A model generated the notes under the pieces. The model was not told the origin of the DNA and searched no databases. It saw only the letters and a program-made list of their open reading frames with translations. A stretch of 64,000 bases of DNA from Craspedostauros australis (taxonomy: Eukaryota): the NCBI GenBank assembly GCA_030167865.1, contig JALAGF010006637.1, positions 1 to 64,000 of the forward strand, in the 5' to 3' direction. Each line of letters opens with the position of its first letter. Positions within the stretch are counted from its first letter, which is position 1. The position numbers were made by a program, and so were the translations under genes. Shown one piece after another: positions 3 to 58,275 of this stretch.

Positions 3-3000
3 CCGGAGTCGGATGGCATCTTCTGCAAGCTCCGTGGCAGGGATGCCGAAAATCACGGGCGCTTGAACCTCCGCATCGACGGTCTGGACATGGATTGGGT
101 GAACGAGAACCAGGACGCTTTGTCTCCGGCTCTCGGCCATCATGGGCTGTTCTACACGGGCGCCGTCATCAACGACGAAGGTCTCCTGTTGGAGCTTCCG
201 GAGGAGACGACCATCGATGACATGGAGATTCACACCATCTTCGTGCAGGACGCCATCAACATTCCACCCAACGAAGACGGAGTCTCGTCTTCCATTCCGT
301 CGATGGCCGAGACTACCAATTCGGTGCTGATCGTTCGTCCCATCTTCCAGGATGGTGAAATTCAGGAGGATTTCGTCCGTGCCAGCGTCTTCGACCAGAC
401 TCCCACATTCTTGGAACAGCACAATGCCATTTCGTTTGATCGCGTCGAACTCATCACCAAACCAGCGCCAGGCGTGGTCAATGGGGTGTACGAGCACACC
501 TTCAGCGAATCTATCGCAGGCAGGAACGTTTTCGACATCGAGAATATCGTCGAGGACCACCTCGTGCAGGTCGGGCTCTTTGATGAATTTGATCACTTCC
601 TCCTCGTCTTTCCGAGTGGAACCGAGTACTTTGGATCCACGACTTGGTATGGTAAGTTGGAAACAGGGAGCGCTCCGGCGATGAAAATGCTGCAATTGCC
701 ACCGCTGATGCCATGCACATCATCCCAAAGTTTCGTTCAATTTGCACCGGCAGCAATAGGGTTTGCCCGTGTCAACCTGCAGATTGCTGCGAAACTTGCA
801 GTTGGAGAAAAACTCACTCACCTGCACCTCCTTCATCTATCTTTGTGCCTCCCTCACGATCGGACCCCGTTAATATCTTCAGCGTATGCGTACGTGGGAC
901 CTTCTCAAAAGATCTCCGTATACAACACCAACTTTCTCGACCCTCAACGCCATGCCATCGACGATGTTGCCACCATTCTCCATGAGATCGGCCACAACTA
1001 CGGCTTGCAACATTCCAGCGAAGGAGTGTCTGAGTACGGAGATGAAAGGTAAAGCACCCACCAGCGCCGCATGCAGGATGCACCGCAGTTTTTGGCCTGC
1101 GCCTGTGCCATCGTGCCAAGTTCTCTCTCTCTCTCTGTCGCTTCGCTTCGTTTCGCTCAGTTTGGTTCCAAATGCCACCATACCACCCCTCACCACTTCC
1201 TTTGGTCCTTTTTGCCTCCGCCTGGTGCACCTACGAACCCCAAATCAACCAACCAATGGTACCAACACCTCCGACTGCCTTCCAATCCTCAGCTGTCTGA
1301 TGGGAGATTCCGATAATCCTCGAAGCGCATTCAATGGTAAGAACAAGCTCGGAGTGGAAATCACAAACGCACTGTCCGACAGCAACGAGGATATCCATTG
1401 CAATGTGCTTCTACGATACTGCGACACAAGCGCACTTGCTCACCCATTTCTTCTTCTTTACTTCATGCACGCTTCATCTACGCTTCATCTACGCTTCATC
1501 CACATTTCATGCGCACGTGTTGTGTCCTATCAAATCCGATTTTCAACACCACCACGATGAACCGACAGCGCCAAAAAACTGGCAGCTTGGATGGTACGAC
1601 AATCAAGCCCTTCAGATTGCGCCGACCCAGATGCTTTCCGACAGAATCTGCGGCGTCGTCGACTACGATACCGACGGCGACACCTCGAAGTACTCTGTTG
1701 TCGTCAAGATCGACATGCCGGGCACCGAGGACGATTACTACGTCGGCTACAACAATCTTGTTGGATTCAACAGCCAAAACTCCGGTACCAATGCCGTCTA
1801 CATCACGCGGGTTCCGTTCGGCACCGTCTTCACTCAGAAGTCCTTCGTCGAGAGCAGACTGATCGCAGCAGGCGATAACTTCGTCATCAAGCGAGGCAGC
1901 TCCCCCGACGTCAACGTCCAGCTCCGAGAGAAGGACCCATCGAGCGAGGATGTGCGCTGCGCATTTGTCGATATCTATCCAGCCATCGGAGGAGCTGAAC
2001 CATCTGCGGCGTGCGCCACTTGGCTGTACAAGTCCGCCAACAGAGTTGTCGACGACCACGAAATCATTTCCTTCCATTTTGATATCCAAATCACCAACAG
2101 CACTTATATCAGCGCGATCGATCTTGAGCTTCTGTCCATGGACAGCGAAGCAATCGCGGTGTACACGAAGCCCAGCTCCCACACGGATACGTCCATCTCT
2201 TGGACTCTCATCCAACAAACCACAATCCAAGCCGAGGGACCTAACAAATTGACACAACTCCCCCCATTCCAAACTCCGATCAAGGCTGTCAGCGGCAGCA
2301 CCATCTCCGTCCGCGTCGACGTCATGAACGGCGTGCCCGAGAATGGCGAGACAAGTAGCTCCCTCCCATCGTCACACCCACCAACAGCATATTCGTGCCC
2401 AGACTGTCCATTCGAGGTGCTTCTCGGAAGAGGATACACCAGCATGGCCTTCAATGGCAACCAGCTCATGAATGGAGCCTGGCTTGATGATCAATACCCC
2501 TTCCTCGGCAAGATCCACTTCTGTGATAGCGTCACCACCGTCGACCCATCTGGAGACACCAGGGTGCCAATTCAAGACTTTGGGGGCTCTCCTCCGAGCG
2601 AGCGATTTCCTCTTCCACTATGCGCGGGTGATTGCGACAGCGACTCCGACTGCGCACCAGGCCTCGTCTGCTTTCAGCGAGATTCTGGCGACGAAATTCC
2701 AGGCTGCGTTGGAAACTTGGGTGCGAGGACAGATTTCTGCGTTTCCAAGACTGCAACGCTTCACCCCACCAACGCCCCCTCTCCCGCCCCAACAGTCCAT
2801 CCAACAGCCCAGCCCACATTCCGGCCAACCAGTGCACCGACCTCGCAACCGACAGGAACTCTGGTCCTCCCTCAGCCGTTAGTTTCCTACTCAGGCAACC
2901 CAGATCCTTCACTGCTGCCTCTTGGACTTTGTGAAGGAGACTGCGACAGTGATGAGCAATGTCAACTTGGTTTGGTCTGCTGGCAGCGAGATGAAGGCGA

Positions 3001-5749
3001 CAGTGTTCCAGGATGCATTGGAAGTCTCGGTTCTCGGACCGACTACTGCATCCTCGCATCCTTGTTGACTGAAGCACCGACGACTGCGCCAACACCCGGA
3101 CCCGGCTCATACCCGACCGCACCTCCGACAGCGTCTCCAACTGTGTCGCTAACCGCTCCTCCGACCAAATTTAGAAGCGCGGCACCAACTGGGTCTATCT
3201 CGCCATCACACATGCCAAGCAATGCCCCGACCGCAGGACCAACCTCTGAGCCCACTTCCGAGCCAACCTCAGCCTCCACGAAGCTGGGAAGTGGAACGCC
3301 AACTGGATCCACTGCGCCATCCTGGTCTCCGACAGGTGTCCCAACGGCAGGGCCAACCGCAGTGCCAACATCAGGACCAACTTCCGGACCGACATCTGGA
3401 CCGACACCTGGACCAACGACAGAGCCAACATCAGCACCAACCATACAACCAACCTCGGAACCAACCCCTACCCCCACCAAGGTGGGAAGTGCAGCACCAA
3501 CTGGATCCGCTGCGCCTTCCTGGTCTCCGACAGGCGTCCCAACTGCAGGACCGACATCGGGACCAACTGCGGGACCAACATCAGGACCAACCTCCGGACC
3601 AACTTCGGCCCCCACGAAGCTGAGAAGTGGAACGCCAACTGGATCCGCTGCGCCATCCTGGTCCCCGACGGGCACCCCAACTGCAGGGCCAACCGCAGTG
3701 CCAACAGCAGGGCCAACGACAGGGCCAACATCAGGACCAACCGCACAGCCAACCTCGGAACCAACGTCGGCCCCCACGAAGCTGAGAAGTGCAGCACCAA
3801 CTGGATCCTCGGTGCCGTCCTGGTCTCCAACAGGCGCCCCTACTGCAGGACCGACATCGGGACCAACCGCGGGACCAACATCTGGACCAACAGCAGGACC
3901 AACGACAGAGCCAACATCAGGACCAACCACACAGCCAACCTCGGAACCAACCTCAGCCCCCACGAATCTGAGAAGTGCAGCACCAACTGGATCCTCGGTG
4001 CCGTCCTGGTCTCCAACAGGCGCCCTTACTGCAGGACCGACATCGAGACCAACCGCGGGACCAACATCGGGCCCAACTGCTGGACCAACATCAGGACCAA
4101 CCTCCGGGCCAACTTCGGCCCCCACGAAGCTGAGCAGTGCAGCACCGACTGGATCCGCTGCGCCATCCTGGTCCCCGACGGGCATTCCAACCGCAGGACC
4201 AACCGCAGGACCAACTTCCGGACCGACATCTGGACCAACATCAGGACCAACCGCACAACCAACCTCGGAACCAACCTCAGCCCCCACGAAGCTGGGAAGT
4301 GGAACGCCGACTGGATCTGCTGCGCCATCCTGGTCCCCGACGGGCATTCCAACCGCAGGACCGACATCAGGACCAACATCAGGGCCAACTTCGGCACCGA
4401 CTGCATCTCCCACTAAATTCGGAAGCGAAAGGCCAACTGGATCTGCTGCGCCATCCTGGTCCCCGACGGGCATTCCAACCGCAGGACCGACATCAGAACC
4501 AACATCAGGGCCAACTTCGGCACCGACTGCATCTCCCACTAAATTCGGAAGCGAAAGGCCAACTGGGTCCTCCGTGCCATCCTGGTCTCCGACAGGCGCC
4601 CCCACTGCAGCACCGACATCAGGATCAACCTCGGCACCATCCACACAGCCATCATCAGGACCAACTTCGGCACCGACTACAGCTCCCACCAAGTTGGGCA
4701 GCGAAAGGCCAACTGGATCAAGCGTGCCATCGCAGTCTCCAACAGCAACCCCAACAGCTGGGCCGACAGCAGGACCAACCTCACGACCTACTTCGTCGCC
4801 AACCTCGTTGCCAACTTCATCGCCGACCAGCCCCGAACCTGTCTTGCTCCCTCTCATCTCCTTTGGTGGATCTCCAGATCCCATCCATTTCCCTCTCCAA
4901 CGATGCGAGGGTGATTGCGATTCTGATGCAGACTGCGAGGATGGTTTGATCTGCTTCCAGCGCGACGAGGGTGAAAGCGTTCCAGGATGCACCGGCCTCG
5001 ATCTCTCGCGAACTGACTTCTGCGTGTTCAGACCACCTGTCACCGCACAGCCAACCTCGACGCCAACAACTCTGCCAACCAACTCGCCGACTTCTATCCC
5101 GACGATGTCGCCAACTGGAAAGCCACTCGCTTCCTCGGCCCCATCAGCATCAGTTGCACCGACGCAGACCTTGAGCGATCCTCCCAGCGGCCAAACCTCA
5201 GTGCCAACGTCGCCACCGACTTCGAAACCAACTCCCTTGGAATCAATTCATCCATCCATTATGGCAAGCACGGATCCAACCTCAGCACCTACACCAATGC
5301 CTACGATGGAACAAAGTGAAAGCCCATCAGCGACCATCGTCTTGCCGATCAAGGACTTTGGCGGAACACCAGACGCCATTCACCGCCCGCTCGGACGGTG
5401 CGAGGGTGATTGCGATGCTGATGCGGACTGCGAAGATGGATTGGTGTGCTTCCAGCGCGACATGGGCGACACGGTGCCTGGATGCGATGGTGAGCTGGGA
5501 AGCAGGACCGACTTCTGTGTGCCGGAAGAATTGATCAACGGATTTCCAACCGAGATCGAGGACACCACTGGTGCGAGGAAGATGTCCGGCATTCGAGGAA
5601 GGAAGAAGAAAAGCCATCTCGCCACAACTGGGACTGAGGGCCCAACATCAACCAACAAGGATGCCGGTGACCGTGCAGCTGCGTCCACCCCAGGAATGAG
5701 GGGAGCAAAGGTTACAGGCGTAATGCCACACCTGATTCGTCGCTGGTAG
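3..5749 (+). CDS. Gametolysin-like peptidase M11 (metzincin) fused to four frustulin ACR domains and a Pro/Thr/Ser-rich repeat region; 5'-partial, 4 exons visible
   Basis: The frame is open from the window start. Inferred exons are <3-651, 883-1048, 1293-1336 and 1569-5749, all with GT..AG introns. Splicing restores WYAYAYVG..HEIGHNYGLQH (HExxHxxGxxH zinc motif)..EYGDESCLMG (Met-turn)..FNAPKNWQLGWY, the motif order of M11 peptidases. Four PLxxC(A/E)GDCDxDxxCxxGL(V/I)C(F/W)QRD..PGC..D(F/Y)C domains follow at about 2567-2743, 2876-3053, 4850-5030 and 5345-5522. Confidence 0.88.
3090..4830 (+). repeat. Coding tandem repeat array (mucin-like PTS region)
   Basis: Eleven copies of PTK(L/F/V)(G/R/S)SxxPTGSxxPS(W)SPT separated by variable numbers of PT(S/A)(G/E) tetrapeptides. 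Near-identical nucleotide blocks are visible, e.g. 4340-4460 vs 4460-4580. Confidence 0.95.
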
Positions 5750-7532: not shown

Positions 7533-10235
7533 TTAGAGAAACTCGCAGGCAGACAGGGATGGTCCAGGGCAATCCGCGGCTGCGTTGTCGATTACGTACG
7601 TCTCGTTGGCTGACGTACACAGTGGTCCCCTGGCGCATAAGGTACATTTGGGGCCTGTTAAATTAGTACAGACTCCTGGTCTGATGATGATGTCATTGGT
7701 TGAAAAAAAGCTGCTGCCAACCCTTTCGCACACACCCCTTCCAAAGCAGGCACCGGCTTCGATGGTCATTCTTCCTGCAAATTTGATGTCTTGAGTCCTC
7801 CCCCTAGTATGCATCCTGGCGCAAGCGGAAGCCCCCTGGCACGCATTCTTTCCGATGAAGACACTTGCCACGATCGGTGTCGTGGTTGTAGACCCTTGGT
7901 TGGTGCGCTGCGCAATGGCAGTGCATGCATCCCTTGTATCGCATGCTCCTTCTTCTATTCGTATATCGCCAAAGGTATTAAGTCCAATACCGTTGCAACT
8001 CGCGCCCGCGAGGCAAGCTCTTGGTCCAATCACTCTGAATCCGACTTCGGCACCGGCAGCTGGCTGATCTTCTAAGAAATTGCCCAACCGAAAGCAAGAA
8101 GTTTCTCCTCTGCAACTGTCTAGTGTGATGACGTCGCGACGTGCGTAGGCGCAAGCGGAACGCCCGATACATGACCCTGAGCTCACCGTGATGACACCCT
8201 CATCGATAGGATCAGTGAAGCAACTGAACGCACCATTGCAGCATCTGCCATTGCACGCATTCTTCACCACAGTCCCACTTCCAGTGAATAGTTCCATGGT
8301 TGCCACCGTCTCCAGCAATGCCTTGGTCACACTTTCGTCATTCTTGATCTTATCAAAGCGTTCCTGCGCCACCTCCAACGTCACGGGCTGTGGAGGGTCT
8401 TCATCATTGCATCCAAAGATGCTCTTGATCATCTTGCTCTTCCCCTCATCAGTCAGAGCATTAACCATGGAGGCGAAGCCCGTGCATGTGCCTGTTGCAC
8501 CATCGCACAATACATCACCAGTGATGAGATTGAACGTTGATGTGCCGTTACCTGGTATTGAGAGACATCCAACGGTCAAGGATGCCGATGTGGGAGCTGA
8601 TGTCGGAGCCGATGTGGGAACAGATGTGGGTTCAACCGACACGGTAGGAAATGGGGTGNNNNNNNNNNNNNNNNNNNNNNNNNNNNNNNNNNNNNNNNNN
8701 NNNNNNNNGGGTTCAACCGACACGGTAGGAAATGGGGTGGGAAAGAACGTCGGACACTCCGTTGGCAATGTGTCCTTGCCAACGCAATACTCCTCCACCT
8801 TGTCACCTGTTGGAAGGAAGTTTGTGTCCCTGCCTCCCTTGGGACAAGCTTCCTCTGCATCACTGATGAGATATACCTCATCAAAGTTGCACTCTGTCTT
8901 CGTCATGCATGCCCAGCAGCTCTGAACACCGCCGCAACCGCCAGGAGGGACGATGATATCTGTTCTCATCCTGTCATTCAAGCCAAGCTTCTCGCATGAG
9001 CCTTCATCAGCACAGCCACCATCACCGATGGTCAGGCTTCCTGCAATCTTGCCACCTGGAAAACGACTCACGGTGGAATGAGCATCCTTGCAGGCATTGC
9101 TGCCAATGCACGCATTCGCCCCAATGTCGATATGGCTGCGGAAGCGAAATGATGGTGCCTTCTGCACAACTCGGCGTCCAGTGGAATTGCATGCCTCTGG
9201 CCCAATGCATGCACCGGCCTGGATGGTGACATCACCATGAGAACGACGCCCCACTCCCTCACAAGATTGAGGGGTGGTGCATGCCATCTCACCAACGAAG
9301 GTGACTCCCATGATGAAGGAATTGATCTCATTCTCATTCATCAACTCGCATGCACTCGCGCCAGTGCAGGAGGCATCGAGAATGAGAGGGTTCGGTCCCA
9401 TGTCCTTGCAGGCACTGTCACCGGTGCATGCGGTGATGGCGATAGTCATGAATGGAGCAGAGTTGGAGGCGGATCCGGTGACTGAGGTGCATCCCGCTGA
9501 CCCTTGGCAGCATGGATTGGCGACAGATGGAGATTGGGCCATTCCGATGGACATACAGGCTGCCTCCATTGCATCAGGTCGCTCGGTGACGAGAATCGGG
9601 TTCGTGGCAGCGATCAGGGCCAATTGGCCAGCAAGCATGTCGTCCGATGCGTACATGTTGAAGAGCTTGCGAGCGGCTCCTTCTCCAAGGTTCCCTGCGC
9701 ATCCGAAGAAGTTCTGAAGTTCCTTGGATTCCTTGACGGCAGCTACAGCCTCACGGCATGATGGCTTGGCAGAGTTGCAGATGATGGTCTTGGGCCTGGC
9801 TTCATCTGGTGTGAGGATGGTGGCACCATCGGGCTTGCAGACAACAGCGATGGTGGAATCGAAGTCCATCGGAGGAGCTGATGGAGCTGGAGCTGGCGGC
9901 ATGGTCGGCGATGAGGTCGGAGAGCGTGTGGGATCGATCGTTGGATGAGCGCTTGGAATCCATGTGGGCATGATGGTCGGACCTGCAGCGTCCTTGGATG
10001 TTGAAGGCATTGAAGATGGCGGATTGGAGGGATCCAAGACGTCGTTTTTGTTTGTTTTGGCACCCTTGTTGTTGCCAACGCCGACAGCAGCCTTGATTGC
10101 TCGAGTGGCTTGCAATGCCAGGTGCATTTCATCCACACCGCTCGTGGCCTCTTCTCCGTTTAGGCGCGCTTCAGCCACCACCATGAAGGCAACAAGGAGA
10201 GTGGTGACGATGATTGTCTTGGTGTGGATTATCAT
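7533..10235 (-). CDS. Secreted Cys-rich protein with two tandem C-x5-C repeat modules and Pro/Thr/Ser linkers, function unknown
   Basis: The ATG at 10235 is followed by a signal peptide (MIIHTKTIIVTTLLVAFMVVAEA-RL). Two homologous modules each have (F/I)FGC, CCxGxxxC and seven repeats of about IxxxACxGxxAC. The ORF crosses the 50-N gap inside a PTPFPTVSVE repeat, so the linker length is uncertain. Confidence 0.85.
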   Translation of the reverse strand: MIIHTKTIIVTTLLVAFMVVAEARLNGEEATSGVDEMHLALQATRAIKAAVGVGNNKGAKTNKNDVLDPSNPPSSMPSTSKDAAGPTIMPTWIPSAHPTIDPTRSPTSSPTMPPAPAPSAPPMDFDSTIAVVCKPDGATILTPDEARPKTIICNSAKPSCREAVAAVKESKELQNFFGCAGNLGEGAARKLFNMYASDDMLAGQLALIAATNPILVTERPDAMEAACMSIGMAQSPSVANPCCQGSAGCTSVTGSASNSAPFMTIAITACTGDSACKDMGPNPLILDASCTGASACELMNENEINSFIMGVTFVGEMACTTPQSCEGVGRRSHGDVTIQAGACIGPEACNSTGRRVVQKAPSFRFRSHIDIGANACIGSNACKDAHSTVSRFPGGKIAGSLTIGDGGCADEGSCEKLGLNDRMRTDIIVPPGGCGGVQSCWACMTKTECNFDEVYLISDAEEACPKGGRDTNFLPTGDKVEEYCVGKDTLPTECPTFFPTPFPTVSVEPXXXXXXXXXXXXXXXXXTPFPTVSVEPTSVPTSAPTSAPTSASLTVGCLSIPGNGTSTFNLITGDVLCDGATGTCTGFASMVNALTDEGKSKMIKSIFGCNDEDPPQPVTLEVAQERFDKIKNDESVTKALLETVATMELFTGSGTVVKNACNGRCCNGAFSCFTDPIDEGVITVSSGSCIGRSACAYARRDVITLDSCRGETSCFRLGNFLEDQPAAGAEVGFRVIGPRACLAGASCNGIGLNTFGDIRIEEGACDTRDACTAIAQRTNQGSTTTTPIVASVFIGKNACQGASACARMHTRGRTQDIKFAGRMTIEAGACFGRGVCERVGSSFFSTNDIIIRPGVCTNLTGPKCTLCARGPLCTSANETYVIDNAAADCPGPSLSACEFL
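8659..8708. other. Assembly gap (50 N) flanked by an identical 31-mer
   Basis: gggttcaaccgacacggtaggaaatggggtg occurs at both 8628-8658 and 8709-8739, consistent with an unresolved 30-nt tandem repeat or a contig-end overlap. Confidence 0.95.
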
Positions 10236-10757
10236 GGTTATCGCGTTGTATGGTATGTTGTGGAGTGATGGAACGATAGGATTCGATGCTGAATTGTTGC
10301 TGTTGCTATTGCTGCTGCTATTGCTGCTGCTATTGCTGTTGCTGTAAGGTTCCAATTCGAATTGGAGCTTGTCGATTTTGTGAGAGGAGAAGTGATGATG
10401 ATGATGACGGTCCATTTGCTTCCTGTTTCTCTTTCAGACAACGCCAAGAGCAAGGAGCTTCAACTGTTGGAGCTGGAGAGCACATTGTTGATGTCGTGAG
10501 TATTGCTGTCCTGTTCATGTCCTTCCGAAAAGTGGAGGTTCCCCTCCTTGCATCGCGTTGTTTCCAATTTCATCCTCCCTCAGAAACGACGTGTGAATGC
10601 GATCGCGAACTCGTCAGAGCATCACACAGAATGAAGCTCATGGCGCAAGAGGGAACCTGTGTACCATACAGCAGAACATCGTAGTCCTATGCCCTTGAAA
10701 TGGGCACTGATGTCGACTGCGGTTGAAGATGAAGTCTCAGAAACCATGTACCGCCTC

Positions 10758-11464: not shown

Positions 11465-12236
11465 GCGGTTGCGCGCCGTGCTCGACTCTCCAAACCAACG
11501 AACATCGTAGTCCATCCAGTCGAAGATACTCCTCCCCCTTCCCACCTGTTTCGATGTGGTCGCGCCAGTGCGACCAAAGGTACCGACGCGTGCGGTGGCC
11601 GCTTGGATCATGGGCGTGCACTTGACCGCGATCAATTGAGTATCAACTAAAATATAATAGTATCCATGCCAGACAAGTATTATATTCTACATCCATAGGA
11701 CTCAGCCGTCCCTCTCTGTCATTGTAAGTTTGTGTACGTATTGAGATATAAATCCGTATCCGGATCCGGATGTGCGCCTCTCGCTCTGCCTCGGGCGGCG
11801 CTCGTTCTTCTTCTGCTGTGGTCGGAAGTTCCGATCTTCAGAGGTGTGTGCACCGACATTTCGGGATGGTGTTGCCTCCTATTCTATTAGAATATGATAT
11901 TATACCTATTGTATGTTGCTGCTGCAGCGACAGGATATAGGAGACGGAGGTCGTGGTCAAGGTCAAACAGTGTGACTGGCAACAGTAGCATGTGGTGGTT
12001 TCGTTGGTGTTCTCAACCAAGAATGGGGAACGAGAACAACGAAAGATCCGAGTCATTTCGTGACACAAGATACCAACCACCGCGGAGGCGAAGCCAGCAT
12101 CAACAGCGACCACAGCCAATCCCACAAAACAAAGAAGCGGGCGGACAGCAAACGCAAGATCAACCTGTTGAGCCACACCCATCATTACTATTCTACCAAT
12201 ACCCCACAAAACAAAGAAGTAGTACTGCCAACGAAG

Positions 12237-13172
12237 ATGACCATGTTCCGCAAGACCCTGAGCGCTCTGCTGAGCTGCGCGATGATCAGCCAGGTGCTGA
12301 CCCAGGAGTGCAACCTCTGCGCAGGCATCAGCGACACCCCGGACCTCAACCCAGGACCGTCCCCGTTCGATCCCAAGGGCCAGGTCGACTGCAACACCCT
12401 CAACACGCAGCGCACGAGCTTCACCGAGGCCGACTCGCAGTGCACGGACATCCAGCTCGCGGCATTCCAGGGCGGCTGCTGCAACAGCCCACCGTACGGC
12501 AAGTGCAGCATCTGCGCCACGGGCGACGCCGTGAGCACCAACAAGGTGGAAACCGGCGCCGCATCCCCACCATCCTGCGGTGAGTACTCCAACACCCCGT
12601 TCGCATACTACCCCTCCGACAACGTCGGATCGTGCGCCGAAACGAGGCTGCGTCGCGTCAGCTTCATGTGCGGCTGCCAAGGCGCCGAGCAGGAGTGCGG
12701 CCTCTGCGACGCGAACGGCGGTGTGGCGTTCCCGGACCCCGGCAACCCGTCGTTGCGCGACAACCTGCTGCGCAACGAGTCGTGCCGCAGCATGGTCTTC
12801 ACGACGCTCATCAACCCCGCTGCCACCTGCGACAGCAAGAAGGACATCTACGGTGTGGATTACGCCGGATTCTGCCGCTGTCCCGGCACCACCGAACCCA
12901 CCGATCCGACCTGCTCCATCTGCGAGGATGGGCAGAAGGAACGTGACGGGGACACCATCATCGCATCCGGCGTCAAGGGTCCGGACGGCCAGACCCGCGA
13001 CCTCAAGTGCAGCGAGGCCTACCTGCTTGCCAAGTTCATCACGAACCCCGGCGTTTGCCAGCGCCTCAGCAACAACACGCGCGCGGCGTGCTGCAAAAGC
13101 TCGGCCAGCGCCCTGAAGATGGCTTCGTCCCTCTTCCTCGTGGGATCTGCCGTCGTCGCACTTCTGTTCTAA
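12237..13172 (+). CDS. Probable GPI-anchored cell-surface protein with four six-cysteine repeats
   Basis: Signal peptide MTMFRKTLSALLSCAMISQVLT, then four repeats CxxC..C..C..C(x)C (CNLC..GCC; CSIC..CGC; CGLC..CRC; CSIC..ACC). The C-terminus KSSASALKMASSLFLVGSAVVALLF has small residues followed by a hydrophobic tail with no cytosolic extension. Codons are strongly C/G-ending. Confidence 0.85.
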   Translation: MTMFRKTLSALLSCAMISQVLTQECNLCAGISDTPDLNPGPSPFDPKGQVDCNTLNTQRTSFTEADSQCTDIQLAAFQGGCCNSPPYGKCSICATGDAVSTNKVETGAASPPSCGEYSNTPFAYYPSDNVGSCAETRLRRVSFMCGCQGAEQECGLCDANGGVAFPDPGNPSLRDNLLRNESCRSMVFTTLINPAATCDSKKDIYGVDYAGFCRCPGTTEPTDPTCSICEDGQKERDGDTIIASGVKGPDGQTRDLKCSEAYLLAKFITNPGVCQRLSNNTRAACCKSSASALKMASSLFLVGSAVVALLF

Positions 13173-25401: not shown

Positions 25402-28400
25402 TTACCTACCATCCTCGTCGTCGTTCTCATCGTCGCCTTCATCCTCCTTGGTTCCAAGCCCGAACATGCTCAGATCTTCATCGCTGTCCTCATCCTCTGG
25501 CATCTTCCTCATCCATCGTGCGATGAGGGTTTGGCGACGTTGTTCCTCAGCGGTTGAAACTCCGACTTCGGAATCTGCGATCTCGTTGACGGATTCCACA
25601 TCCGACGCTACAGTTTCCTTGTCGTCCTCCTGCGGCTTGCGCACCCATCGATCGAGGTAGCTCTGTCGCCGCTTCTCTGCCATCTTCACTTCCTCCATGT
25701 CTTCTGAATCGGCAGCCAAGATTTCCGAGTCTGTCTGTCGCAGCGGCGCCAAAGACTCAGTCTCCGCGTCTGCACCTGTTGCCGCTTCATCGAGATCTAC
25801 CTCGGTGTTGGCATCATCCGTCGATCCGTCTTCGGAGACTGGTGCGTTTTGGACCCACCGGCTCATCAGAGCCATGCGCTTGCTGGCCAACGCATGCTCG
25901 CGAGTCTCCACGTCTGTCGTGGCGATGGAGACCACCTCGTCGCTATCAGAAGTGCCTGACTGGACAATCGCAGGAGTCGTCCACCGAGAGAGCGCCGCGT
26001 TGCGCTTATCCTTACCCTCCTGTACGGAATCGAAGGTTGCCGCCTCCACCAAGGCAGGAGATTCTTGTGCACCGTCGCTTCTCTCACGTCGTTGCACTGC
26101 TTGCGAACCCCCCTCAGGCCGAGGTGCTTTGCGAGATCCGGTCTTTTTCAGAGATGATCGATTCGCCAGGGCGTTGGCCAGTTCCGGGGAGACATTGGTG
26201 CTGGATGAGGATCCAGCATCGCTGGCCTGGTCGCTCCCAGTGACGCGTTTCAATTTTGCCATCTGCTTCAGGCCATTTCCTTGTAGCTTTTCCTCGGCCT
26301 TTCGGATTTGCTCTGCCTCGTAGATCTTCTTCAATCGATCATCGCTGGTATCGTCGTGGATGACGCCCTTCTTGAAGTCATCAACGGCATCATCGCCGGC
26401 AGTCTTGCACATCTCATAGACCATTAGCACCAAGGACTGCTGGCCGGAGTTCTTTGCGTTGCCAACCATGTCCTCCGGCTTGGGTGGCTTGTTGCTGGGC
26501 ATCCTCAAGCTTCTGGAAACGGAGGCTTGTAGCTTCTTCTTGCGCACAGCCTCCTTTCTCCTGAGGATCTCTTGCCTTTCTTTGTGCTTCTTCAGCGCAG
26601 AATTCAGGTTGCCGGCGAATTCAGCAAGGATCGCGAGCAAGCTGGCGGCCTTGTTCTCACCACCTGGTTCGCAGAAGAATTCGGACAGATTGCGGCAGGC
26701 CTGGACGGCGTTGTCGCGTTCAGACTCAAGCGCACTGTACACCGCATTCGCTTCCTCGAGGAAGTCGTCAATCCTTTTCACACCATCTTCTCTCGTATAC
26801 TCGGCTCTTTCCTCACGCTCGGGATTAAGCTTGGCCTTCATCGATGCTCTGAGGCTGGCACGAGGCGAAATGGCCGGTGCTCCTTCACCCTTTGGCTTGG
26901 TCGCTGATTTGAGCAACTCAGCAACGGTCGACGAGCTGCCCTTGGCCGCCATCTCCTGCTTGCTAGCCTTCATCTTCTCCAGGAACTTGGTGCGCTTTGC
27001 GATGATGCCATTCTTGTTACCGCCGGCTGCCTCGGTCTGATTTCCAGCACGCTTGCGCATCTCTGCTGCGAAGAGCGGTTCGCTGCGGGTCTCCGTGTCT
27101 GGTGCCGGAGGCTTGCCATCGGCAACGAGCGCCTCGCGTTCTCGCTTGCATCGTCGCATCGCGGCTGACATGGATCGGACGTCGCCGAGCAGATCCGAAA
27201 GCTGGATCTTGCTCGCGCTTTGGCAGTCCGGGAAGTCATCGGAGAGCAGCAGAGCATTCTGCTGATTCCTTTCCGCGAAGATCATGACGATGAGATCCAA
27301 CGCGGACGTCTTCTTGTCGGAGCCCTTCGTTTGCGCGAGGCGAGAAAGGAAGTCCAACTTGAATCCGGCGACCTCCTCTCCTCTGCCTTCGTTCATGATG
27401 TTGCCAATCTGTCGCACAACATCGAGGAGGTCGGGCAGCTTGATGCTGCTCATCACCTGGTTGCATACCGTGATCAGGAGTCTGAAGCTCTTGCAGATCT
27501 CGTCGGCTTCGTTCTTGAAGGTTCCCATCGTCTTCAGTACACCGACCTTGGCGTCGGCTCGCTCAACGTGTGCGATCTGCTTGAACCAGAGTTCGGCAGG
27601 CACGAGACGGTCGTCAGCTCCTGAGTATCCCTTCACCATCTTGGCTTCGGCCGGTGCAGGAAGCAAGTCCTTCATGAACTGCACACGTTCATCAACGAGG
27701 CGCTTCTTCGGATCGACGAATTCGATGATCTTCCCGAGCTCTGCACGGGAGAATTCCTTGTACGCCTGCAGACTGATGGCGACGTTGTTCGCGCGGTTCA
27801 GATCGATCAGCTTGGCCATGATCTTTTCTCCGCCTGCTGTGGTCGTCACAGTCTTCTTGGCCGCTTGCGTAATCTGTGTCGGCTTTTGGAACTTCTCCAC
27901 ATGCTTGGAGATGTCCGTGACGCAGCTGATCTCTGAGCAGTCGTCGGGGATGGGAGAGGTTCGCAGCTTGCCCCAGATGCTGTTGGCCAGCTGCTGACCC
28001 GAAGAAAGCGGGTTCCAGTGGAAGCCCGGCTTCAACGCACGTCGTTTCTTCTTTGCAGGCTCCGATGCGCTATTGTCCTTGACCTTGTCACCGAGAACAG
28101 CCGCGATGATCTTCGCTGACACGCCCTCCTTCTGCATGCGGTGTCGGACTCCCTCCTTCGGGATTTTGAGCTTCAGCATCTGTCGGTACGATGTCGCGAT
28201 GGATTCCTCTGCATCGGTCAAAGTCACGCCGGTGGGCTTTCCCGATGAATTGGGCGCTGCCATTGACTTTCCAAGGACCACCTCCATGAGCTCGACCTTG
28301 ACGCCCTCCTTTCTCATCTTGTGCTCAACAGCTTCGGCAGGAATGCACATCTTGAGCATCTTCTTGTAAGAGTCGACCTTCTTCTGATCCTCCGGCGAAA

Positions 28401-31400
28401 GCGCTGCGGGTTTGTTCGCGCCATCGGTGGCCTCCACATCGCTCCCGGATGACGCTCGGTCAAGAACAGCGTCCATGATCTTCGTGCTCATGCCTTCCTT
28501 CCTCATCTTGTGTTCCACCGCTTCAGGAGGAATCCTCATCTTGAGCATCTTCTTGAACTTACCAACGTGCTCCAGGTCTTCCTTCGTGAGATCGTTCTTC
28601 GGCTGTTGGGACGCAGATCCAGCATTCGGTGCTGCCGATCCTTCATTCAAGACCGCCTGGATCACGTTGATGCTCACGTCCTCCTTCGTCATCTTGTGCC
28701 GCACGGCTTCGATGGGAATCCTCATCTTGAGCATCTTGCGGTAGGTTTCCACCTGCTTGGCTTCTCCCTCCGACAACTCAGTCATGGCTGAAACGGCCGA
28801 CATGGTCGGGCTGCTCCCTGCTTCCACCGTCGTGGTTGGGATAGATGTGGAGAGTGGGAACGGCGCAGATCTCCTGTTCTGCATGGCATCCACCAGATCA
28901 GCATGGCTGGCCGGGTGCGACATGCGCCGCTTGCGGTAGGCTTCCAGCACTTCCCGTTCTTCTGCGTTGAGATGTTCGACAACGGTGGGCTTTGGCGAGG
29001 CTGCTGCCGCCGCCGCCGCCGCTTGCGGAAGCGGCTCCGTGGAGCTGGAGAGATCGTGCAGTGCCTTGGAGAACACCAAGTAATCGTGCTTGCTGTCGAA
29101 CAGCAAATCCTTCGCACTGTGCTCATCAGCCAATAGCAGACGCACCCGGAGGGCCACGATGTCGAACGTCATGGAACGGATCGATTCGGGCTTCAGTCGC
29201 CAAATGACTGTTTCGGGTTGACCACCCTGAGACTGCAGCTTCACAAGCTCCGTTTGGTTCACGCGAACTGTTTCAGTAACGTCGGTACCAGCATCACCAG
29301 CATCATCAGCACTCTTCTTGAGAGGCACGGAGACCTCGGACGGTGGTTCCTCCTGGTTGGGCCTGTTGTCGGCTGGAGGGTCGACGGAGGAGGATACCTT
29401 CGTGGCATCGTCTCCGGAGTGGGACGTTCTGATCATAGGTGGGTCGACGGCGACCGCAGCTGCAGAATCCACGCTCGGTCCCACGCTGTCCTTCGTACTA
29501 TCCGATGATTCTGAAGCGACGAGAGATGGAGATAACTTCGCCGGCCCAGTGGCAGAGGATGGGCTGTCCACAGTCTCAACAAGCACAGATGTTGCTGTCT
29601 GTTCGGTGGACGCAGACGCTGGATTCGGTTTGTGCACACCCTGTGTCGGTTTCAGTGCTGCTTTGAAGGTGGAAAAGGCGGCGCCGCTGATACCCTCGCC
29701 TCTCGGAGCGTTGGCTGGTGTCTTTGGTCCAGAAAAATTCATGGGTGTGTACGTCTGCTTGTGCTTGGTTGGCTGAGCGGATGTGGCAGTGGTTGCCGAC
29801 GTTGGAGCTTTCGCGACTGTCGCAGAGTCGTCGATAGTACCAGCGGATGATGCCACCGAGCTCTCCACCTCGATCTTCTCTTCTTGTGGCTTGCCCTTCA
29901 CGTGACGCAGCTTGACCTTGGCCCAAGCAGATGGCACGGACGCATCGGATGATGCCGATCTATCTGGATCGCGCACAGATCGCAGCTTGATGCCAGACCA
30001 TGGGATTGAGACATCGCTGTCAGCGGGTTCGGCGTTCGGGAGTGGACGCTTCCTCGATACCGTCGATTGCTTCGACGATGCCGACCCTTGCTTCGCGCCA
30101 GACCGAGCTGAAGCCGACGTGGACACACCGTTATGTTTGGTGTGCATAGTCGGGATCGCTTTGGAGGTTGCCATGCCCTTCTGCGACGCCTCCATGAAGA
30201 TGGTGTCGCTTGAGGCAGCGACGGAATCCTCAGATCCCTTGTTGGAGAACTGGCTGAAGGAGACTTGGGAATCCATGTTGCCGGATGATGCCGCCGCAAC
30301 GCTTGCCGGTTGCCGCACGGATCCTGTCGAGCCAGCGGAAGATGCGGTCGTTTTCGCTGTATTCTTGGAAGTGTCCACCGAACCGGAAGACTTGAATGGC
30401 CCCGCATGCTGCTGTTGTTGCGGCTGGCTTGCGCTGCTGGGGCTGTCGTTCTTTCGGTGGTGCTGTGCGAGCGTGACTTCGAACTCGTTGCAACAATCCA
30501 CATCATCGATGCTGTCAGTGGACTTGCTCAATGTCACGTTGAAGCCATTGTCGGATTGTTTCGTGCTGTCCTCCTGTGCGGCAGCTTTCTTGGGGACCTT
30601 CTTCAGAATGTGTTGGCCGAAGTCCAGCTTCTCTGTCACCGTTGGCTGGATGAACCTCGAGGCGTTACCTGATGGCGCACTTCGCTTGAAGTTGTGATTG
30701 GTGCCTCCACTGATGGTTTTGCCGTTGCCGTTGCTGTGGCTGTTGGCCGTGAAAGTGTTGTCACGACCGCTTGGGTCGAGCATCTCATGAACGCCATCCC
30801 GCGTCTGCGTTGGGAGAGCCTGTGGTTTGGACGAGTTCATGATGTGTCCATCTGATTGCGCCGCGCCTCTGGCTTGGGTTGAAGCCATGTTGGCTGCTGC
30901 ATTGCTGCTGTCGTGGACGTCACCACGGTTGCTGTTGGATTGCTGGGTGGAGGATTCCTCATCCGAGCGCATTCGTCGCAACGCATCGTCGGTAGCGCTG
31001 GGCTTGCGTGCTGATGGGAGAGTGCTGTTCTTGGGCGAAGGTTTCGATTGCTTGGACCTCGAAGAGGAGGAAGATGATGAGGAGCTTTGCTTGTTTGTTT
31101 TGGAATTCGTTGGAGACTTTTGCTTGCCCTTGCCCTTGGCCTTGCTGAACATGTTGCGTGGCGACAAGCCGCGAGGCGACAGGAGCTTCCTCATGCGGCT
31201 GGAGTGCGGCATCTTGTCCTTGGTCCTCGGATTGGTCGTCTTGCGCACTGCCCTTGCCAGCACCTTGCGCATCATGGCCTTTTCGCTTGGACCAGTACCC
31301 AGACCGCTGCTTCCGTTCGACCGTCCCGAAGAAAACAGGCTCTGCCTGTTGCTGCCCTTGCGAGACCACATACTCTTTCCTTTGCTCTGTTGTTTGGGCT

Positions 31401-32511
31401 GTTCCGATGCGTCGCCGGATGCTGCCCTCGCAGCCTCATCCGCTTGCTTCTTGGCTCTGGATGCGGTGAAGGACAATCGTTTGGAGGAGCTCTTGCTCGA
31501 CTTGAGACTGGTCTTGGCATATGAACTCATCATCTTGCGAAGGAATGCCTTCTGTTCGCTTTCATTCACGGATGATGTCGAAGTCGCTTGCGATGCTGAC
31601 GACTGGCTCGAAGCGGGTGGCTTGGTCGTGTGCTTGCGTTGCGTTCGCTTGAGGTCGTTGGTTCGCTGCGTGCTCAGGATTGGCATTGACTTCCGATCGT
31701 TGCGCTTGTCCGGTTTGGCTCTGACTGGTGCCTTATTGTCATTGCCAAGATCCAGTCGCACAGGTGCTTTGCGTTTGTAGCTGTCCACCTTGCGACGATC
31801 AGCGAAGGAGGCGGACGTGCGTTGCTTGCTTCTATCGATGGAGTCCGTCGATGCCGATGAGACTCCTGATTTAGAATCCCACGTCGCTCCGGTGTCATCG
31901 TACAGTTTCTTCTTCTCTTGCTTCTTCAAGCCCTGACCGTAGAAGTCTCTGTTGGCTGCGATGGCCTGGTTTTCCTCATTTCCTTCGTCCCCATGACCTG
32001 AAGCCGTCGATGCCGTGGATGGCGCCTTCCTGTTCGCCCCGATGCTCGACGAGGCTGATGCTGACGATGCCGAATCGGCCCACGAAGTAGATGGCGCGGT
32101 TGGTGCTGTCCTGGCATACATGTGATGATCCGAATGTACCGGGCTCCATGTGTCATGATCGTCCATGCTGTTCAAGTTGGTGGATGCGACAAGCGGTCGC
32201 GTGCTCTCCTTGGTTGGTGCCGATCGTTTCGATGTGGGTGATAGCTGCCGAGCCGATGGCTGTGGCGCTGTTCTTGTTGGCACTGCTGGTGCTGCAGCCT
32301 TCGTCACCTCCACATGCTTGTAGTTGCCGAGTGGCTTGTTGGCTCGGACCGTGACATTGCTGCTGGGTGGCGGAACCTTCGCGCGATTGCGCTTCTTCTG
32401 CAAGAGTCGCAGCTGTCTCTGATTGAGCTGAATTCCAATCTCCGAATTCGTTGGTTCTTTCGAGATGGTGACGGTCGTCCGTGGGAGGTGTCTTCGCTGT
32501 TCAGTCGCCAT
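25402..32511 (-). CDS. Formin (FH2 domain) with four CCDC53/WASHC3-like repeats and a long disordered N-terminus
   Basis: FH2 motifs at about 28040-26570: FHWNPL..NSIW, LIDLNRANNVAISL, LDVVRQIGNIMNEG..AGFKLDFLSRLAQTKGSDKKTSALDLI, FFCE..LAEFA. Four (Y/F)xxMLK(M/L)xIPxE(A/G)VxH(K/R)MxKE(G/D) repeats lie at about 28097-28744. The first ATG is at 32511. Confidence 0.9.
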   Translation of the reverse strand: MATEQRRHLPRTTVTISKEPTNSEIGIQLNQRQLRLLQKKRNRAKVPPPSSNVTVRANKPLGNYKHVEVTKAAAPAVPTRTAPQPSARQLSPTSKRSAPTKESTRPLVASTNLNSMDDHDTWSPVHSDHHMYARTAPTAPSTSWADSASSASASSSIGANRKAPSTASTASGHGDEGNEENQAIAANRDFYGQGLKKQEKKKLYDDTGATWDSKSGVSSASTDSIDRSKQRTSASFADRRKVDSYKRKAPVRLDLGNDNKAPVRAKPDKRNDRKSMPILSTQRTNDLKRTQRKHTTKPPASSQSSASQATSTSSVNESEQKAFLRKMMSSYAKTSLKSSKSSSKRLSFTASRAKKQADEAARAASGDASEQPKQQSKGKSMWSRKGSNRQSLFSSGRSNGSSGLGTGPSEKAMMRKVLARAVRKTTNPRTKDKMPHSSRMRKLLSPRGLSPRNMFSKAKGKGKQKSPTNSKTNKQSSSSSSSSSRSKQSKPSPKNSTLPSARKPSATDDALRRMRSDEESSTQQSNSNRGDVHDSSNAAANMASTQARGAAQSDGHIMNSSKPQALPTQTRDGVHEMLDPSGRDNTFTANSHSNGNGKTISGGTNHNFKRSAPSGNASRFIQPTVTEKLDFGQHILKKVPKKAAAQEDSTKQSDNGFNVTLSKSTDSIDDVDCCNEFEVTLAQHHRKNDSPSSASQPQQQQHAGPFKSSGSVDTSKNTAKTTASSAGSTGSVRQPASVAAASSGNMDSQVSFSQFSNKGSEDSVAASSDTIFMEASQKGMATSKAIPTMHTKHNGVSTSASARSGAKQGSASSKQSTVSRKRPLPNAEPADSDVSIPWSGIKLRSVRDPDRSASSDASVPSAWAKVKLRHVKGKPQEEKIEVESSVASSAGTIDDSATVAKAPTSATTATSAQPTKHKQTYTPMNFSGPKTPANAPRGEGISGAAFSTFKAALKPTQGVHKPNPASASTEQTATSVLVETVDSPSSATGPAKLSPSLVASESSDSTKDSVGPSVDSAAAVAVDPPMIRTSHSGDDATKVSSSVDPPADNRPNQEEPPSEVSVPLKKSADDAGDAGTDVTETVRVNQTELVKLQSQGGQPETVIWRLKPESIRSMTFDIVALRVRLLLADEHSAKDLLFDSKHDYLVFSKALHDLSSSTEPLPQAAAAAAAASPKPTVVEHLNAEEREVLEAYRKRRMSHPASHADLVDAMQNRRSAPFPLSTSIPTTTVEAGSSPTMSAVSAMTELSEGEAKQVETYRKMLKMRIPIEAVRHKMTKEDVSINVIQAVLNEGSAAPNAGSASQQPKNDLTKEDLEHVGKFKKMLKMRIPPEAVEHKMRKEGMSTKIMDAVLDRASSGSDVEATDGANKPAALSPEDQKKVDSYKKMLKMCIPAEAVEHKMRKEGVKVELMEVVLGKSMAAPNSSGKPTGVTLTDAEESIATSYRQMLKLKIPKEGVRHRMQKEGVSAKIIAAVLGDKVKDNSASEPAKKKRRALKPGFHWNPLSSGQQLANSIWGKLRTSPIPDDCSEISCVTDISKHVEKFQKPTQITQAAKKTVTTTAGGEKIMAKLIDLNRANNVAISLQAYKEFSRAELGKIIEFVDPKKRLVDERVQFMKDLLPAPAEAKMVKGYSGADDRLVPAELWFKQIAHVERADAKVGVLKTMGTFKNEADEICKSFRLLITVCNQVMSSIKLPDLLDVVRQIGNIMNEGRGEEVAGFKLDFLSRLAQTKGSDKKTSALDLIVMIFAERNQQNALLLSDDFPDCQSASKIQLSDLLGDVRSMSAAMRRCKREREALVADGKPPAPDTETRSEPLFAAEMRKRAGNQTEAAGGNKNGIIAKRTKFLEKMKASKQEMAAKGSSSTVAELLKSATKPKGEGAPAISPRASLRASMKAKLNPEREERAEYTREDGVKRIDDFLEEANAVYSALESERDNAVQACRNLSEFFCEPGGENKAASLLAILAEFAGNLNSALKKHKERQEILRRKEAVRKKKLQASVSRSLRMPSNKPPKPEDMVGNAKNSGQQSLVLMVYEMCKTAGDDAVDDFKKGVIHDDTSDDRLKKIYEAEQIRKAEEKLQGNGLKQMAKLKRVTGSDQASDAGSSSSTNVSPELANALANRSSLKKTGSRKAPRPEGGSQAVQRRERSDGAQESPALVEAATFDSVQEGKDKRNAALSRWTTPAIVQSGTSDSDEVVSIATTDVETREHALASKRMALMSRWVQNAPVSEDGSTDDANTEVDLDEAATGADAETESLAPLRQTDSEILAADSEDMEEVKMAEKRRQSYLDRWVRKPQEDDKETVASDVESVNEIADSEVGVSTAEEQRRQTLIARWMRKMPEDEDSDEDLSMFGLGTKEDEGDDENDDEDGR

Positions 32512-32968
32512 GGTGAGGTTCCGTTGCGTTCCACCCAACCAGAGTAGTCGCTGTCGTGCACAATTTCAGATCGTCTTCGACTATTGCATATCACTCGGCT
32601 GTCATCCAATTGATGTGACGTTGTCGCTGCGAATACGCTCAATCCGTTCAATCTGTGCAATCCGTTCGAGCTAGCTTAGCCGTGTGCAAACCGCCAGTTG
32701 CGTGAGTCTGGATGATATTGTGTCAATCCGGTTTGCTCTTCCCGTCGCTGCAGGTGGGTCGCTAACGATGATAGAGGGTGGTTGGTGTAGCCAGTGGTGG
32801 ATGTTTGGAAATGGTTCTTCCTGGATGGTATGTTGTTTGTGCTTTGGTTGCTTGATGTAGGTATGTGGGCGTCTGAGGACGTCTGAGGAAACCGTGTGAA
32901 CAGAAACGAGCAAAACAGTGACAAAAGGAAGATGCAAGCGGTGTCTCGGTAGTCGGTTGATGAATGCA

Positions 32969-57566: not shown

Positions 57567-58188
57567 ACAGCTCATGTCGTCCGGCAGCAACACAACACAG
57601 CAGCAAGAGAGAGAGAGAGAGAAACGGAATCAGAACGCCACAACCGCAACACCGCCATCCTCCTCCTCCTCATCATCAGCAACAACCATGCATCCTCCAC
57701 ACCCATACCAATGCTCGTCTCCATGTGCACCAAACAGAGGAAAGTACTCTCGCACAACTAACAATAAAGCAATAGAACACACACACAACTTCGCGCACAA
57801 TCGCGCCATCGTCATCGATCGTGGAAACTCCCCATCGTGAGACATGCAGACAGAAGAAACAAGATCAGAACAGCGGAAGAATTCTCGCGAAAAGTTTGTC
57901 GTTGCGCGTTTCCGATGAACCAGTCTAGTGCATGTGAGTCTAGAGAGAACGATTGTCGTTCACCAAACAAGTCCGCGCTAATGAATGACTACCCGGACTG
58001 AGCTGAGTTGGGCGAACTCACGATTCTGCGAAGACGACAATCACCACACAAAACACGCCTCAAAATCCAACGGCACAAACTCACGCACAAACACACTCGC
58101 ACAATTGGCATTCATCGATCGCCTGTTCTTGCCATTCTTCTCCATTGTGTAAGTGCTCAAGTGTTCAAGTGCAATGCCATCATAGAGT

Positions 58189-58191
<3 letters not shown>

Positions 58192-58228
<37 letters not shown>
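58192..58228. repeat. (GA)n microsatellite
   Basis: Uninterrupted GA run about 50 nt upstream of the nardilysin-like ATG. Confidence 0.95.
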
Positions 58229-58229
<1 letters not shown>

Positions 58230-58275
58230 ATACAATATAACTTCGAAAGCAACGATTAGTTGCATTGCATGCAAG

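Follow-up and report, generated by a model that had tools for sequence, protein, structure and literature searches.

Does a single gene of Craspedostauros australis encode a protease that carries the modules of a frustulin? The question is raised by the beginning of contig JALAGF010006637.1 (assembly GCA_030167865.1), of which we analyzed positions 1 to 64,000 of the forward strand (hereafter referred to as the window). Four exons at the start of the window (Table 1) encode a protein in which a metallopeptidase of family M11 is followed by four acidic cysteine-rich (ACR) modules of the frustulin type, with a long proline/threonine/serine-rich (PTS) repeat array between the second and the third of them. 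Judged from its sequence, the gene made up of these exons is a genuine nuclear one, from a diatom-type alga, and codes for a modular protease. As to the role of the product, we consider it rather probable that it is a secreted M11 zinc endopeptidase, that its two pairs of ACR modules, with the PTS region as a spacer between them, keep it in the organic, calcium-dependent coat of the wall, and that it acts on glycoproteins of the wall or matrix.

In the list of stop-to-stop open reading frames (ORFs), the gene appears in pieces. A +3 frame without stops extends over bases 3–1052, ends in ...HEIGHNYGLQHSSEGVSEYGDER and includes the sequence HEIGHNYGLQH, and a 1482-codon frame at 1301–5749 includes KNWQLGW and four C(A/E)GDCD motifs. 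Read on the DNA, donor GT dinucleotides are located at 652, 1049 and 1337 and acceptor AG dinucleotides at 881–882, 1291–1292 and 1567–1568. The four exons joined by these coordinates amount to 5040 nucleotides, in which 1679 sense codons follow one another without interruption up to the terminal stop; the start of the gene, and hence the N-terminus of the protein, is outside the window. When the spliced N-terminal 620 residues were aligned with 14 M11 homologues, each splice junction fell inside a gap-free conserved block: W.AYAY for the first junction, Y.D.S..MG for the second and CFN..K.WQLGWY for the third. A hidden Markov model (HMM) of the M11 family, built from the 14 homologues with the window row left out, matched the spliced model continuously with 207.0 bits (profile positions 85–415 and residues 100–422), and this single match extends across all three junctions.

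Intron 1 required separate consideration. Because its length is a multiple of three and its frame is open, the reading frame alone is no proof of this intron, and it is homology that supplies the proof. Retention of intron 1 was ruled out, as it broke the match to the M11 family HMM into two parts of 14.6 and 179.0 bits with 77 unmatched residues between them; none of the 14 aligned homologues has an insertion at this position. Skipping of exon 3 was also ruled out, as 10 stop codons then enter the frame. By homology, all three splice junctions are well supported. The original prediction had spliced three ORF fragments into one protein via GT..AG introns, with junctions at 651/883, 1048/1293 and 1336/1569, and these junctions stand: the dinucleotides are in place, the joined frame is open throughout and homology continues across each of them.

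The M11 C-terminal subdomain, from KNWQLGWY onward, and all four ACR modules share one uninterrupted exon, so that the fusion of the protease with the ACR part is independent of any splice. The two parts thus evidently belong to one gene, not two. That the M11 exons and the ACR/PTS exon came from separate genes, or were brought together by an assembly chimera, is scarcely credible. The region does contain long tandem repeats, and such repeats are easily mis-assembled, but the KNWQLGWY subdomain and the ACR1 and ACR2 modules are only about 1 kb apart in an uninterrupted frame that lies upstream of the repeats, and the same contiguity is seen in three independent environmental families (see below). 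On the opposite strand, a 734-codon ORF (3043–5247, −) rich in G, V, P, D and E was rejected as a gene; it mirrors the codon repeats for Pro and Thr, and no domain is contiguous with it, in contrast to the + frame.

The HEXXHXXGXXH motif defines family M11 in the MEROPS and Pfam descriptions, and it is intact in the spliced protein as HEIGHNYGLQH (nt 981–1013). The H-E-H-H zinc-binding/catalytic residues, the motif glycine and the Met-turn are all present, and the Met-turn sequence CLMG, encoded by exon 3, aligns with the Y.D.S..MG block of the 14 homologues. In Pfam scans, exon 2 alone matched Peptidase_M11 (PF05548) with 30.1 bits, against a cut-off of 21, over profile positions 126–162 of 303 only, while the unspliced frame 3–1052 gave 27.6 bits. 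Relatives were collected with phmmer, using as the query the first 325 residues of exon 4, which contain no ACR part, and as the database 1.84 billion representatives. There were 211 matches at E≤1e-3, five at E≤1e-10 and none at E≤1e-30; most of them align to query residues 1–120, and the best one (3.2e-14) has 32% identity. PF05548 was found at E≤1e-3 in 19 of the 28 matches that were scanned with Pfam, in 18 of them with a score at or above the gathering cut-off. Of the relatives without PF05548, nine in number, three are fragments beginning at the Met-turn. One relative has in its cluster a protein of Thalassiosira pseudonana, XP_002297485.1, that bears the name ‘Peptidase M11 gametolysin domain-containing protein’. 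The motif, the Met-turn, the score of the active-site exon above the PF05548 threshold and the identity of the relatives, taken together, assign the predicted protein to family M11. No close orthologue was found among the 1.84 billion representatives, and in a word-index search for long orthologues (765–2436 amino acids) with the non-ACR part of exon 4 as the query, none of the 3290 candidates scored.

Between the protease and the first ACR module lies a domain of about 170 residues, predicted to be a beta-sandwich. Other diatom-type M11 proteins, T. pseudonana XP_002297485.1 among them, have after the catalytic domain, and often in several copies, a domain with the pattern NGNMF..VYTK..LTPLP..PRVWNG, of which the present one is a divergent form; residues 159–297 of the phmmer query match, among others, residues 244–387 of one such protein (P0039). 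An AlphaFold model of the domain, based on an 11-row alignment, had a mean predicted local confidence (pLDDT) of 68.6, with residues 11–100 modeled confidently and the C-terminal third below 50. Compared with the PDB, the model had a PHR domain as its best match (E 4.5e-3, TM 0.46) and nothing at E≤1e-3, and the ESM Atlas returned eukaryotic clusters without names together with PHR, DUF4082 and lectin-like leads at 0.90. We regard these similarities as leads only, and a binding role for the domain is a guess.

The ACR domain of frustulins is defined by the hexapeptides C(E/Q)GDCD and VPGCSG together with conserved cysteines (PMC4712521), and ACR domains are described as calcium-binding units of about 50 residues (PMC4712521, PMC4557024). 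In the present protein, CxGDCD motifs start at nt 2621, 2930, 4904 and 5399, with two on each side of the repeat array. We used an ACR HMM that was built from 163 modules of other proteins and none from the window. Among the six-frame ORFs of the window, it gave exactly four matches, with 68.5–74.9 bits, and none elsewhere. That this independent profile matches exactly these places means that the four ACR sites are not chance occurrences. Every module has CxGDCD, (I/V)PGCxG and six cysteines, and all 24 cysteines are intact. By these marks, the four are genuine frustulin-type ACR modules.

ACR1 aligned with the tandem ACR array of a Cylindrotheca fusiformis protein (P0002) at 47–54% identity in the best five BLASTP segments (best E 7e-16). 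The first word-index search produced 34 matches that were confined to the ACR part, with 9–28% query coverage; all 34 hold one to eight CxGDCD motifs, and the 11 for which an organism is named are all from diatoms (Cylindrotheca fusiformis, Skeletonema and Nitzschia). None of the matched ACR proteins bears the source name ‘frustulin’ in the database, so that it is the motif definition in the literature that ties them to frustulins. The AlphaFold model of ACR3 (29-row alignment, pLDDT 85.7) is a small three-disulfide unit, and a structure search with this model returned only knottin-type peptides, none of them significant (best E 0.41).

The array between the two ACR pairs consists to 62% of P, T and S across its 583 residues and contains no cysteine. 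It matches the Pfam PT repeat with 194.1 bits, in 14 stretches, and its DNA is tandemly repeated (21 rows in Tandem Repeats Finder (TRF), with periods of 12–186 nt). We counted 10 repeats beginning PT(K/N)(L/F/V)(G/R/S)S, one beginning STKLGS and 11 PSWSP-like motifs. The 67-residue tail that follows ACR4 has no hydrophobic stretch, and a transmembrane or glycosylphosphatidylinositol (GPI)-type anchor at the C-terminus is therefore absent from the predicted protein. Past about position 5500, the GC content goes down from 0.58 to 0.51. These results agree with the original prediction in all the parts that it had listed, namely an M11-type catalytic domain with an intact zinc site, Met-turn and KNWQLGW motif, four C(A/E)GDCD domains arranged as 2 + PTS array + 2, and a long mucin-like array; what it had overlooked is the beta-sandwich domain between the protease and ACR1. 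It had also proposed scans with PF05548 and with a frustulin ACR profile, of which the former scored above the cut-off on the zinc-site exon and the latter found only the four expected sites in the window.

Gametolysin is stored as an inactive precursor. For the present protein, one could envisage that the M11 head cuts itself off, or is cut off, to free a frustulin-like structural wall protein, or that the ACR–PTS tail keeps the protease latent as a zymogen store until the tail is taken off. We think that such a precursor or polyprotein is quite improbable. The C-terminal ~1070 residues do resemble a frustulin of the proline-rich-linker type, in which ACR domains are joined by proline-rich domains (PMC4712521), and it is common for wall proteins of diatoms to arise by processing of a precursor, with RXL motifs (PMC4557024). 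However, RXL processing sites were not found at the repeat ends, the single R.L triplet in the 1679 residues being RPL at residue 1559, and Trp-rich and polyglycine domains are absent. Furthermore, other M11–ACR genes have one to three ACR modules and no long array, which argues that a tail of this kind does not, as a rule, amount to a frustulin in its own right.

These other genes bear on whether the fusion is peculiar to the window. Among the 150 phmmer matches listed, CxGDCD follows the M11 C-terminal half in at least three relatives, P0070, P0122 and P0125, whose clusters have 2, 16 and 8 members, respectively. Longer cluster members have three ACR modules (P0185) or two (P0205). Scanning of metagenome contigs by P0205 yielded 80 loci; an ORF with a KNWQLGWY-type motif was present in 57, and ACR modules were in the same ORF only in L001. 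This locus (L001:3–1760, +), on a genomic metagenome contig, has a full M11 gene that ends right after its second ACR module. The first exon ends with ...GQMH, the second has the sequence EIGHNLNLAH...SGM, and the ORF from the Met-turn through the second ACR module makes up the third; the zinc motif is thus split by an intron between its first H and the E. L001 is, by its predicted exons, a second complete M11–ACR gene, and, because it has introns, the M11–ACR relatives are taken to be eukaryotic.

L001/P0205, P0185 and the P0122 cluster have the same domain order as the window protein, M11 and then ACR, with 33–35% identity in the M11 C-terminal half. They have one to three ACR modules and neither the beta-sandwich domain nor the long PTS array, whereas the window protein has both, together with four ACR modules in a 2 + 2 arrangement. 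We constructed a midpoint-rooted FastTree phylogeny from 158 M11 C-half sequences over 163 columns, after removal of 11 near-duplicate rows, namely L001, which is identical to P0205, and ten from the P0122 cluster. On this tree, the distribution of the six rows with ACR modules requires four changes, at least three of which are forced by well-supported branches; many of the rows labeled ‘no ACR’ are partial fragments, for which the label is unsafe. The M11–ACR fusions may accordingly have been formed independently, as far as a quick, indicative tree can suggest.

With respect to novelty, the original prediction fared unevenly. Novelty was overstated, as M11–ACR fusions occur also in L001, P0185 and the P0122 cluster, but its statement that no characterized protein with this architecture was known to it stands for the literature searched. 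In that full-text literature, outside which most subscription journals fall, we found no account of M11 joined to ACR, nor of ACR modules that serve to tag enzymes. The same fusion, for which a search of diatom proteomes had been suggested as a check, did turn up, rarely, in environmental sequences. Both parts of the protein and the expansion of M11 in diatoms were already known; the fusion is rare, not unique, and uncharacterized elsewhere.

ACR modules were also found on other enzymes. A trypsin-like protease (P0015; Trypsin_2, 61.9 bits) has five; one protein is PhoX-like with 26.8 bits against a cut-off of 24 (P0013) and another by precomputed Pfam (P0021); and P0231 of Nitzschia inconspicua combines an alpha-carbonic anhydrase domain (53.7 bits) with ACR modules, as do, by precomputed Pfam, four more proteins of the P0231–P0235 set. 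A ricin lectin domain together with ACR modules is seen in P0023 and P0027 by precomputed Pfam only; ricin B lectin domains occur in some frustulins (PMC4712521). The carbonic anhydrase P0231, the trypsin-like P0015 and the PhoX-like P0013 resemble the window protein in having an enzyme domain, four or five ACR modules and PT-rich linkers. They differ from it in their catalytic domains, and in the carbonic anhydrases the ACR modules stand before the enzyme domain, whereas they come after it in the window protein. A search for longer proteins with an ACR-containing query gave 13 ACR proteins, and none of the 13 has the zinc motif. Frustulin-type modules on enzymes are, on this showing, a recurring theme in sequence databases.

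External carbonic anhydrase and alkaline phosphatase are enzymes that work at the cell surface. Since several of the ACR partners are surface-type enzymes, they give mild support to a retention role of the ACR modules, and this distribution suggests that diatoms may use ACR modules generally to keep exoenzymes at their surface. The same distribution can be accommodated by a soluble secreted protease, in which the ACR and PTS regions are generic spacer or stability modules, EGF- or knottin-like, and which acts in the medium or mucilage, for example in nutrient scavenging or defense. ACR modules do occur on very different proteins (carbonic anhydrase, PhoX, trypsin-like protease and lectins), and the modeled three-disulfide unit has only knottin-type look-alikes, at non-significant E values of at least 0.4. 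We nevertheless consider a soluble enzyme unlikely, if a serious contender, because several of the partner enzymes are of types that act at the surface, which retention fits better than free diffusion.

Frustulins are released from the wall by ethylenediaminetetraacetic acid (EDTA). They bind Ca2+ and are located in the wall matrix (PMC4557024, PMC4712521). In the reading that we favor, a wall-retained M11 protease, the enzyme would be secreted, as inferred from M11 family members, and its ACR modules would keep it, as is thought for frustulins, in the organic coat around the silica wall, a coat that depends on calcium. The PTS spacer would be hydroxylated or glycosylated and serve as an extended stalk, and the protease would cut glycoproteins of the wall or extracellular matrix locally, for instance in cell separation, in sexual stages or in coat turnover. 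Wall tethering and wall remodeling are plausible, and the protein is a good candidate, though no more than a candidate, for these roles; those named in the original prediction, in valve separation, gamete release or adhesive trails, are likewise putative. A wider proposal, which we put forward tentatively and do not expect to hold in full, is that ACR modules are a portable calcium-dependent wall-retention tag on surface enzymes (M11 and trypsin-like proteases, PhoX phosphatase, external carbonic anhydrase) and on lectins, that this gene encodes a wall-resident autolysin, with a long glycosylated stalk between its two pairs of ACR anchors, which opens or remodels the organic casing of the frustule in cell separation or sexual stages, and that the tag was gained repeatedly and independently by M11 proteases.

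Several observations weigh against an active, wall-retained protease. Exons 1 and 4, scanned singly against Pfam, gave no PF05548 match, the M11 domain outside the zinc-site exon being too divergent for Pfam. In the quick tree, the M11 domain of the window is on a long branch of 1.19 changes per column, and its best identity is 40%. It has alanine at two positions that are cysteine in all 14 aligned homologues, one in the WC that precedes HExxH and the other in the CFN that precedes KNWQLGWY (window 940–985 and 1320–1336; spliced residues about 240–286). These substitutions are possibly the joint loss of one disulfide, and without the two conserved cysteines activity or stability could differ. 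Wall anchoring by the ACR modules is carried over from frustulins, and their spread over diverse proteins would fit a generic structural or stabilizing extracellular module equally well. Finally, the copy number and length of the repeat array may reflect mis-assembly. A 5–7 residue insertion also precedes the zinc site in the M11 domain of the window.

Divergence of this kind could be that of a paralogue, within the M11 family that is expanded in diatoms, which is decaying or non-catalytic and thus a young pseudogene or a pseudo-enzyme. Such a state would be in keeping with the long branch, with the 32% identity of the best phmmer match and the absence of any match at E≤1e-30, with the loss of two family-conserved cysteines and with the divergence of the beta-sandwich domain, whose C-terminal third was modeled with a pLDDT below 50. 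It is very unlikely, however, given a frame that is open over 5040 nt with consistent splice sites, and given that the H-E-H-H residues, the motif glycine, the Met-turn and 24 of the 24 ACR cysteines are intact.

To our knowledge, no enzyme has been assigned to the opening or remodeling of the organic coat of the diatom wall. A protease with four ACR modules is a concrete, testable candidate both for a coat-remodeling enzyme and for the study of what ACR modules do besides binding calcium. If retention by ACR modules is true, the modules would be a natural display tag for the engineering of diatom surfaces; if they are mere spacers, the protein would be one more member of a known, expanded protease family. 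Of greater interest than the gene itself is the lead that enzymes of the cell surface seem to share ACR modules as a tag that can be moved from one to another.

The features of the gene are listed in Table 1. The rest of the window has ordinary eukaryotic nuclear genes, encoding a formin with an FH2 domain (25402–32565, −), a BEACH-domain protein (41708–50788, −) and an insulinase-type M16 peptidase (58186–61866, +). Two neighboring cysteine-rich ORFs with PT-rich linkers, one at 7533–10433 (−), which is broken by a run of N, and the other at 11976–13172 (+), have no Pfam match and may encode further secreted or wall proteins. Within the window, there was no sign of an operon-like or functional cluster around the M11–ACR gene.

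Table 1. Features of the M11–ACR gene, with positions in the window
Feature	Position	Strand	Description
Exon 1	3..651	+	Pro-region and N-terminal half of M11 catalytic domain; ends in phase 1; 5′ end beyond the window
Intron 1	652..882	+	GTAAGT..CAG, 231 nt; in frame, stop-free
Exon 2	883..1048	+	Carries HEIGHNYGLQH, nt 981–1013
Intron 2	1049..1292	+	GTAAAG..CAG, 244 nt
Exon 3	1293..1336	+	44-nt mini-exon; Met-turn region (CLMG)
Intron 3	1337..1568	+	GTAAGA..CAG, 232 nt
Exon 4	1569..5749	+	M11 C-terminal subdomain through stop; TAG at 5747–5749
M11 C-terminal subdomain	1569..1975	+	Start of exon 4; KNWQLGWY onward; relatives carry PF05548
Divergent beta-sandwich domain	2039..2545	+	~170 residues, between protease and ACR1; phmmer and alignments
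ACR module 1	2555..2770	+	CAGDCD ... IPGCVG; six Cys at nt 2621–2740; ACR HMM 69.4 bits
ACR module 2	2864..3079	+	CEGDCD ... VPGCIG; ACR HMM 69.5 bits
Pro/Thr/Ser-rich repeat array	3080..4828	+	583 aa; Pfam PT repeat, TRF
ACR module 3	4838..5053	+	CEGDCD ... VPGCTG; ACR HMM 74.9 bits
Second PTS-rich linker, ACR3 to ACR4	5054..5332	+	Non-repetitive; sequence composition
ACR module 4	5333..5548	+	CEGDCD ... VPGCDG; ACR HMM 68.5 bits
C-terminal tail	5549..5749	+	67 residues; basic patch RGRKKK; one Trp; TAG stop 5747–5749

Among known systems, the alpha- and epsilon-frustulins of Cylindrotheca and Navicula resemble the C-terminal part of the window protein in their ACR modules of about 50 residues with CxGDCD and VPGCxG and in the proline-rich regions that join them (PMC4712521, PMC4557024). 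Frustulins are not enzymes; they possess a presequence, and some types have polyglycine and Trp-rich domains as well. In the window protein, by contrast, the ACR part forms the C-terminal tail of a protease. The family criterion for frustulins, as given in one account, is at least three of five features (PMC4712521). Of these, ACR domains and proline-rich domains are present in the window protein, and a polyglycine run and a Trp-rich C-terminal domain are absent from it, the tail after ACR4 having a single Trp; the fifth, a presequence, would lie beyond the window. With two of the four testable features, the protein carries frustulin-type modules and is not filed as a frustulin.

The gametolysin/VMP family of Chlamydomonas and Volvox comprises extracellular metalloproteases that degrade the wall or matrix (as cited in PMC11499653 and PMC8769554). 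This family (MEROPS M11, PF05548) and the window protein have the HEXXHXXGXXH motif and the Met-turn in common and are very distant in sequence outside the active site. We know of no green-algal M11 enzyme with a beta-sandwich domain, ACR modules or a PTS array. The wall target would also differ, being the organic casing of a diatom for the window protein and a wall of hydroxyproline-rich glycoproteins for the green-algal enzymes.

Other diatom M11 proteins are closer. M11 families are expanded in Pseudo-nitzschia, with 17–50 genes (PMC11499653), and in Chaetoceros tenuissimus (PMC8613185), and a gene annotated as ‘autolysin’ is upregulated 1 h into mating in P. multistriata (PMC8769554). Diatom M11 proteins such as T. 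pseudonana XP_002297485.1 (P0213) and the window protein have the blocks W.AYAY, HE.GHN, Y.D.S..MG and CFN..K.WQLGWY in common and belong to the same catalytic-domain subfamily, although the window protein is without the two cysteines conserved in the others. The T. pseudonana record (2612 amino acids) has two catalytic domains of the M11 type, with several repeats of the beta-sandwich domain after each, and may represent two tandem genes merged in annotation; it has no CxGDCD motif. In the diatom M11 proteins and the window protein alike, the beta-sandwich domain and PT-rich linkers come after the catalytic domain. The former have several copies of the beta-sandwich domain and no ACR module, whereas the window protein has one divergent copy and a frustulin-type tail.

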